A DNA stretch of 64,000 nt from Escherichia virus TH38. The stretch lies in the sequence record MT446410.1. One strand, given 5' to 3'. The notes beneath the pieces were generated by a model. It did no database searches. It was given only the letters and a program-made list of their open reading frames with translations, and was not told the origin of the DNA. This document shows positions 40,196-40,807 of the stretch, piece after piece (positions within the stretch are counted from its first letter, which is position 1; every line of letters begins with the position of its first letter). The translations under genes and the position numbers were made by a program.

Positions 40196-40807
40196 TTAGT
40201 AAGACACATCACCACTTGAATGGGACATGTTGCTCTTGACGAAGTAGCAATACTTGCCAAGACCTTCATTAATTTCTTGAAGCATACTCTGATCGACAGG
40301 GTAGGTGGCTAAATCACCATCAAACTCATCCATCTTCTCAATAATACACATCAAGGTCATGCACATATCAGAGAGCATACCGTCCATGTCTAGATCAGCA
40401 TTACCCTCTGAGAACCAAGCATGGGAGAGATAATTAGCTGCTGTAGCATCCACTTTAACGCAGTGGTAACGCATACGTTCAGCAATACGATCTCCTACCT
40501 GTCGTGCGTAATCTTCCAGCTCATCAAACATACCATGAACACCCTGAAATCCTGCACCAGAGACGTTCCAGTGGTAGTTTTTAGCTTTGATATGCAATAG
40601 TTCCATGTTAGCTTGTAAGCAGCTCAGGATGTGTTCTAGGCTGTTTCCACTAATCATACCTTGCATTGTTTCAAGGCGAGAGATTGATAGGTCGGACCGG
40701 TCTAACATGCTATAACTATCACGACCAATCTCAGGTAAATCAAAAACATTCTTATGCATTTGGGTTTTCTCCATCAAGTTCAACTGAGTTAGCAACGTTA
40801 CGTGCAA
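40196..40807 (-). CDS. Dps-like ferritin-fold protein
   Basis: KAKNYHWNVSGAGFQGVHGMFDELEDYARQVGDRIAERM matches Dps signature; true start likely internal ATG (40774 or 40759). Confidence 0.6.
   Translation of the reverse strand: MHVTLLTQLNLMEKTQMHKNVFDLPEIGRDSYSMLDRSDLSISRLETMQGMISGNSLEHILSCLQANMELLHIKAKNYHWNVSGAGFQGVHGMFDELEDYARQVGDRIAERMRYHCVKVDATAANYLSHAWFSEGNADLDMDGMLSDMCMTLMCIIEKMDEFDGDLATYPVDQSMLQEINEGLGKYCYFVKSNMSHSSGDVSY

Follow-up and report, generated by a model that had tools for sequence, protein, structure and literature searches.

Dps proteins assemble as dodecameric shells with 23 symmetry, in which acidic, ferritin-like pores on the three-fold axes provide the entry route for iron. 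The Dps of E. coli binds DNA through a Lys-rich N-terminal tail; the Dps of L. innocua does not bind DNA. Among phages, Dps genes have been described close to replication genes in Lactobacillus plantarum myophages and in the gut 'Gratiaviridae', where their products were proposed to limit damage by iron and reactive oxygen species (ROS). According to Benler et al., seven Lactobacillus phages were the only ones in which Dps had been observed, a statement that overlooked the phiEco32 group. The identification of this phage protein as a Dps is already public: phiEco32 gp67 was deposited in 2008 as a 'DNA-binding protein' and noted there to be a 'member of the Dps family', the SU10 paper (2014) described a DPS domain in CDS67 and found its gene in every one of the five C3 phages sequenced at the time, and the Privateer paper followed in 2021. 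In the literature that we searched, no phage Dps had been studied biochemically or genetically. Our own additions are minor, namely a residue-level confirmation, a case against DNA binding, a conserved N-terminal extension, a conserved pairing of the gene with gp68 and the recognition of an 'integrase' mis-annotation.

We analysed a window of 64,000 nucleotides from Escherichia virus TH38 (MT446410.1), in which an open reading frame (ORF) at 40196..40807 (−) encodes the protein of interest. The surrounding 6 kb is 92–98% identical to about 100 phiEco32-like podophages of E. coli and Shigella (Gordonclarkvirinae, Kuravirus), in agreement with an earlier, sequence-only reading of this DNA that had called the gene phage-encoded. 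In phiEco32, gp67 (ABY52868.1) is 100% identical to the protein in the window and lies at the same position between gp68 and gp66; apart from an extra HNH endonuclease in the window, two genes downstream, phiEco32 differs from it in nothing of substance. On one side, the Dps gene is flanked by a gp68-like ORF, three small paralogues and a dCTP deaminase gene, and on the other by a 59-aa ORF followed by genes for thioredoxin (39669..39947), an HNH endonuclease (39212..39682, −) and ThyX (38587..39243). The SU10 paper assigned this region to the middle-gene cluster of replication and nucleotide metabolism. The cluster includes the dCTP deaminase, ThyX, thioredoxin and parts of the DNA polymerase, and the Dps gene lay within it in every lineage examined. 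Around the Dps gene, promoter and terminator predictions did not exceed the counts expected from shuffled sequences, and the segment immediately downstream (40128–40205), searched for a terminator, folded no better than its shuffles (z = 0.25). The gene appears to lie within a long co-directional operon.

The HNH_3 homing endonuclease ORF is placed between thyX and the thioredoxin gene and overlaps both. Of the 64 Kuravirus records that matched, only 5 (YW01, two for ES17, myPSH2311 and FH3) show a full-length match to it. phiEco32 lacks this ORF and has just 15 nt between thyX and trx; a mobile insertion is the probable explanation. The three tandem phrog_4939 paralogues (65–69 aa; 41154..41363, 41363..41572 and 41572..41769, all −) each end in YY or HY and are situated between the dCTP deaminase and gp68-like genes. 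KBNP1711 carries four small genes at the equivalent position. Grimontviridae and Lahexavirus relatives have their Dps next to or near anaerobic ribonucleotide reductase genes (NrdD, NrdG) and a GrcA-like gene, all of which are absent from the equivalent position in the window. The sole tRNA in the window is a tRNA-Arg (anticodon TCT) at 60382..60456 (−).

The maximal ORF begins at the first in-frame TTG after a stop codon. Its translation contains IKAKNYHWNVSGAGFQGVHGMFDELEDYARQVGDRIAERMRYH, which includes the KNYHWNV...HGMFDE...DRIAERM signature on which the sequence-only reading had based a Dps-like protein. The span 40196–40807 given in that reading holds as an ORF, but 40807 is probably not the gene start: the Dps coding sequence is likely to begin at an ATG (40759..40757) rather than at the TTG at 40807. 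A GGAG at 40772..40769 lies 9 nt upstream of this ATG, and the ATG coincides with the annotated starts of the phiEco32 gp67 coding sequence and of KBNP1711 gp069. It overlaps the stop codon (TAA) of the upstream, gp68-like ORF (40752..41081, −) by 8 nt, in ATGCATAA. Given this Shine–Dalgarno motif and the two annotated starts, the upstream in-frame part of the maximal ORF (40760..40807, −), which falls within the gp68-like gene, is probably not translated as part of Dps. The coding sequence at 40196..40759 (−) comprises 187 codons and a stop, and the mass of its product, 21,196 Da, agrees with the 21.2 kDa published for SU10 CDS67.

The product is a Dps-family protein, as identified by Pfam, by PDB sequence matches and by its predicted fold, and the Dps-like identity claimed earlier is borne out. 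For the Pfam family PF00210 (Ferritin), the score of 31.1 bits exceeds the gathering cut-off of 24.5 (E = 2.6e-7), with a match spanning residues 55–108 only, and PHROG 3636 matched at 2.6e-55; similarity at this level goes well beyond chance. When PDB sequences were searched with phmmer up to E = 1, 58 of the 59 matches were Dps or Dps-like proteins, the sole exception being an NTF-2-like protein at E = 0.61. The leading matches, at about 1e-8 to 1e-9, were M. smegmatis Dps2 (the best, at about 3e-9), B. subtilis MrgA, B. anthracis Dlp-2 and B. brevis Dps; the E. coli Dps chain reached an E-value of about 0.1 only. All NCBIfam equivalog scores fell below their cut-offs, with 34.5 bits against 114 for Dps (NF006975), and 32.1 against 170 (NF041388) and 17.6 against 300 (NF052461) for DpsA. 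An exhaustive HMMER scan of 1.84 billion representatives returned only 13 clusters at E ≤ 1e-10. These low equivalog scores and the small number of clusters point to a divergent, phage-specific Dps clade and not to a recent copy of a host gene. By its scores, the phage protein is a divergent member of the family and not an orthologue of the cellular Dps equivalogs of NCBIfam.

To describe the fold, we built an AlphaFold2 (AF2) monomer model from an alignment of 61 sequences. The model has a mean pLDDT of 89.9, with values of 94–99 in the core. Its helices A (41–65), B (71–98), BC (107–112), C (125–146) and D (154–176) follow the Dps topology, with the short BC helix in the long crossover loop by which a Dps is recognized and without the E helix of ferritins. 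An extra helix at residues 22–37 is predicted with lower confidence and the termini are disordered. The four-helix-bundle core, residues 45–176, is encoded at 40232..40627 (−). In a Foldseek search of the PDB, the best 50 matches were all Dps proteins, with target-normalised TM scores of 0.72–0.91, and matches confined to the core superposed at rmsd values of 1.1–2.3 Å.

The same ORF is labelled 'integrase' in many Kuravirus GenBank records, for example those of IME267, YW01, ES17 and 172-1. We rejected an integrase identity, whether tyrosine or serine, as PF00210 was the only domain found and the fold is that of a Dps. The label is a propagated annotation error, and it could wrongly flag lytic phages as temperate in safety screens for phage therapy.

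To locate the ferroxidase centre, we compared the protein in alignments with the Dps of E. coli K-12 (from NC_000913) and that of L. innocua (verified as identical to PDB 1qgh). Residues H63, H75, D79, D90 and E94 align, with identical spacing, with H51, H63, D67, D78 and E82 of E. coli Dps and with H31, H43, D47, D58 and E62 of L. innocua Dps, which are the established ferroxidase ligands. The adjacent W64 aligns with W52 and W32, respectively. All five ligands and the tryptophan are encoded within 40478..40573 (−), and this check of the ferroxidase residues upholds the Dps assignment of the sequence-only reading. The AF2 model places H63 in helix A and the other four ligands in helix B, the arrangement known from Dps. 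Across the alignment of 61 homologues, which extends down to about 23% identity, the only invariant columns are H63, F71, H75, D90 and E94; W64 is nearly invariant, and D79 is near-invariant among close relatives. A ten-sequence alignment included divergent phage homologues at 24–42% identity, namely Salmonella 7-11, Proteus P59, Cronobacter GAP52, Aeromonas BUCT695 and LAh_6, a Streptomyces phage and a cyanophage. Here, H63, W64, H75, D90 and E94 do not vary, and nine of the ten sequences have D79. The pore residues are matched only in part. The aspartates D121, D126 and D130 of L. innocua Dps, which line the three-fold, ferritin-like pore, align with D149, P154 and S158 of the phage protein; other acidic residues (E145, D147 and D156) occur in the same C–D loop.

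The gene is under purifying selection and its product has been detected. Relative to the KBNP1711 orthologue (82% identical), dN/dS by the Nei–Gojobori method is about 0.06 (core, 0.04; N-terminal extension, 0.15); these values are qualitative only, since dS is saturated. The SU10 homologue, 96.8% identical to the protein in the window, was found by mass spectrometry (MS) of purified phage with six peptides and 35.8% coverage (SU10 paper, 2014). The Privateer homologue was detected by MS after a CsCl step and equilibrium gradients, among a short list of proteins (Privateer paper, 2021). We rejected a pseudogene or relic in view of the dN/dS of about 0.06 and the detection of the protein by MS. 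The intact catalytic site and the strong purifying selection across C3-morphotype podophages indicate that the gene is probably functional and not a relic.

The phage Dps is likely to work as a dodecameric mini-ferritin, clearing Fe2+ and H2O2 while the phage DNA is being replicated. The protein would be expressed along with the middle-gene cluster of replication and nucleotide metabolism. If it follows the Dps proteins characterised so far, 12 subunits would assemble into a hollow shell with a ferroxidase centre at each two-fold interface, to which one subunit would contribute H63, H75 and D79 and its partner D90 and E94. This centre would oxidise Fe2+, with H2O2 as the preferred oxidant, and Fe3+ would be kept inside the shell. 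Removal of both Fenton reagents would then protect the replicating phage DNA together with redox-sensitive enzymes of the infected cell, which would be thioredoxin and the flavin-dependent ThyX here and the anaerobic ribonucleotide reductase in relatives. The sequence-only reading had suggested that a phage copy may protect replicating DNA or alter host metal homeostasis, and both are reasonable roles to propose for such a sequence. In favour of the mini-ferritin explanation stand the family matches, the fold, the intact and conserved ligands, the purifying selection, the published detection of the protein, the position of the gene in the replication cluster and an acidic charge like that of L. 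innocua Dps; from these, the dodecamer, its catalysis and its benefit to the phage are inferred. Against the mini-ferritin explanation, a purely cytoplasmic role leaves the co-purification with virions in two studies unexplained. Likewise, the pore aspartates of L. innocua are only partly matched, the PF00210 match is confined to residues 55–108, and the NCBIfam equivalog scores are far below their cut-offs.

A different possibility, which we regard as unlikely, is that the protein mainly binds or compacts DNA, of the phage or of the host, in the way of E. coli Dps in stationary phase, perhaps together with the gp68-like protein as a basic adaptor. The 109-aa product of the gp68-like gene (phrog_10984) had no match in Pfam, NCBIfam or the PDB sequences, and its family is basic, with pI values of 7.9–10.1. 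Clear homologues of gp68 immediately precede Dps, adjoining or overlapping its start, in Kuravirus, Nieuwekanaalvirus, Privateervirus, Crifsvirus, Libingvirus and Lahexavirus; in phage 7-11 alone, the homologue is separated from Dps. In the phage database, gp68 occurs in 130 records and Dps in 136, with nearly identical genus counts except for Streptomyces phages and cyanophages. Across C3-morphotype podophages, Dps and the gp68-like gene are conserved as neighbours. A low-confidence AF2 model (pLDDT 65), built from a shallow alignment with identities of 71% or more, shows a small five-stranded barrel with a C-terminal helix, and Foldseek returned only weak, generic SH3/Tudor, PWWP and integrase-CTD-like matches (E ≥ 4e-3). 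The model suggests a small SH3/Tudor-like β-barrel. A basic small-barrel partner directly upstream of Dps, its stop overlapping the Dps start, present in six genera and matching Dps in phage distribution, would suit a DNA-compacting role, but the confidence of the model is low and its fold matches are weak.

The charge of the Dps itself also bears on DNA compaction. Grimontviridae phage homologues of 146–154 aa have short, K/R-rich N-terminal tails, such as MLGARPKRP, MIPTKPKSSSK and MKQILTARPGSKRKAG, which resemble those of DNA-binding Dps proteins and speak for this role. The protein in the window, by contrast, has a pI of 4.71 and a net charge of about −15; its first 45 residues hold four K/R against seven D/E, and its C-terminal tail, SNMSHSSGDVSY, is without basic residues. 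By these charges and tails, the protein does not fit the DNA-binding Dps subclass, which has a flexible Lys/Arg-rich tail at either terminus or a positively charged surface. With acidity in the whole protein and in its N-terminal extension, direct binding to DNA in the manner of E. coli Dps is not expected. The label 'DNA-binding protein' is a transferred family name without experimental origin, and we regard it as unsupported.

The N-terminal extension, residues 1–44 (40628..40759, −), was delimited by alignment, charge and the AF2 model, and is net acidic. An extension of roughly 44 aa is common to Kuravirus-like (Gordonclarkvirinae) homologues only, including metagenomic ones at about 50% identity. 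It contains the conserved motifs MHNNxFDLP and S(I/M)xRL(E/D)xM, in which R28 is invariant; a search for the N-terminal NVFDLP motif in other proteins of the window found unrelated FDLP occurrences only. The Kuravirus-like homologues also share a near-invariant C-terminal Tyr. The phage Dps is unusually rich in Met (15 residues) and Cys (5 residues) and includes a conserved segment, DMCMTL; E. coli Dps, by comparison, lacks Cys altogether.

Encapsulins of the HK97 fold carry ferritin-like cargo. In a loosely encapsulin-like manner, the phage Dps might be associated with the virion inside the long prolate head, as DNA-associated or iron-carrying cargo that is delivered or protects the genome outside the cell. 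We judge this improbable. Two distant C3 phages, SU10 and Privateer, yielded the protein on MS of purified particles, and its gene is a lineage-wide core gene of C3-morphotype podophages; both points argue for such a location. However, the SU10 sample also held terminase, DNA polymerase and thioredoxin (SU10 paper) and was not free of non-structural proteins, and a particle of 250 kDa that may be loaded with iron could sediment together with phage. Moreover, the gene belongs to the middle cluster, that of replication, and not to the late structural cluster, and the cryo-EM/MS study of SU10, which identified gp20–24 as head-internal ejection proteins, never names gp67 or Dps.

We give similarly little credence to a combined form of these ideas, in which Dps and gp68 would make up a two-component module of C3 podophages tied to virions or to packaged or condensing DNA, with the N-terminal extension as a targeting or interaction peptide. 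If true, the module would be an encapsulin-like or nucleoid-like viral use of a mini-ferritin, beyond that of a simple cytoplasmic antioxidant. Least probable of all is that the protein serves as a host-manipulation factor, whose rapid iron sequestration would shift signalling through the Fur regulon or blunt ROS-dependent host responses instead of protecting DNA as such: the intact ferroxidase centre would fit this too, and a protein sharing 18–20% identity with the host Dps could escape host stress control, but at the level of sequence it is indistinguishable from the mini-ferritin explanation. Should the phage Dps control iron and ROS during infection, or travel with the virion, it would be a modestly interesting viral use of a mini-ferritin.

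Among cellular proteins, M. smegmatis Dps2 (2z90, 4m35), Bacillus Dlp-2 and MrgA, and B. brevis Dps are the best matches in both sequence and structure. They superpose on the phage model with target-normalised TM scores of 0.8–0.9 and rmsd values of 1.1–2.3 Å, but share only 22–27% identity with it, have other tails and are cellular stress proteins. E. coli Dps (b0812) belongs to the same fold family and has the same ferroxidase ligands; its N-terminal tail is Lys-rich, whereas the phage N-terminus is acidic. As the two are only 18–20% identical, the phage protein is not a recent copy of the host gene. The Dps-encoding Lactobacillus phages and 'Gratiaviridae' are lineages unrelated to the phage in the window. 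L. innocua Dps (Fri, 1qgh) resembles the phage protein in its ferroxidase ligands, its acidity (pI 4.87, net charge −12) and the absence of a basic tail. The two are about 20% identical, and unlike L. innocua Dps, the phage protein begins with an extension of 44 residues that includes an extra helix, and it contains 5 Cys and 15 Met.
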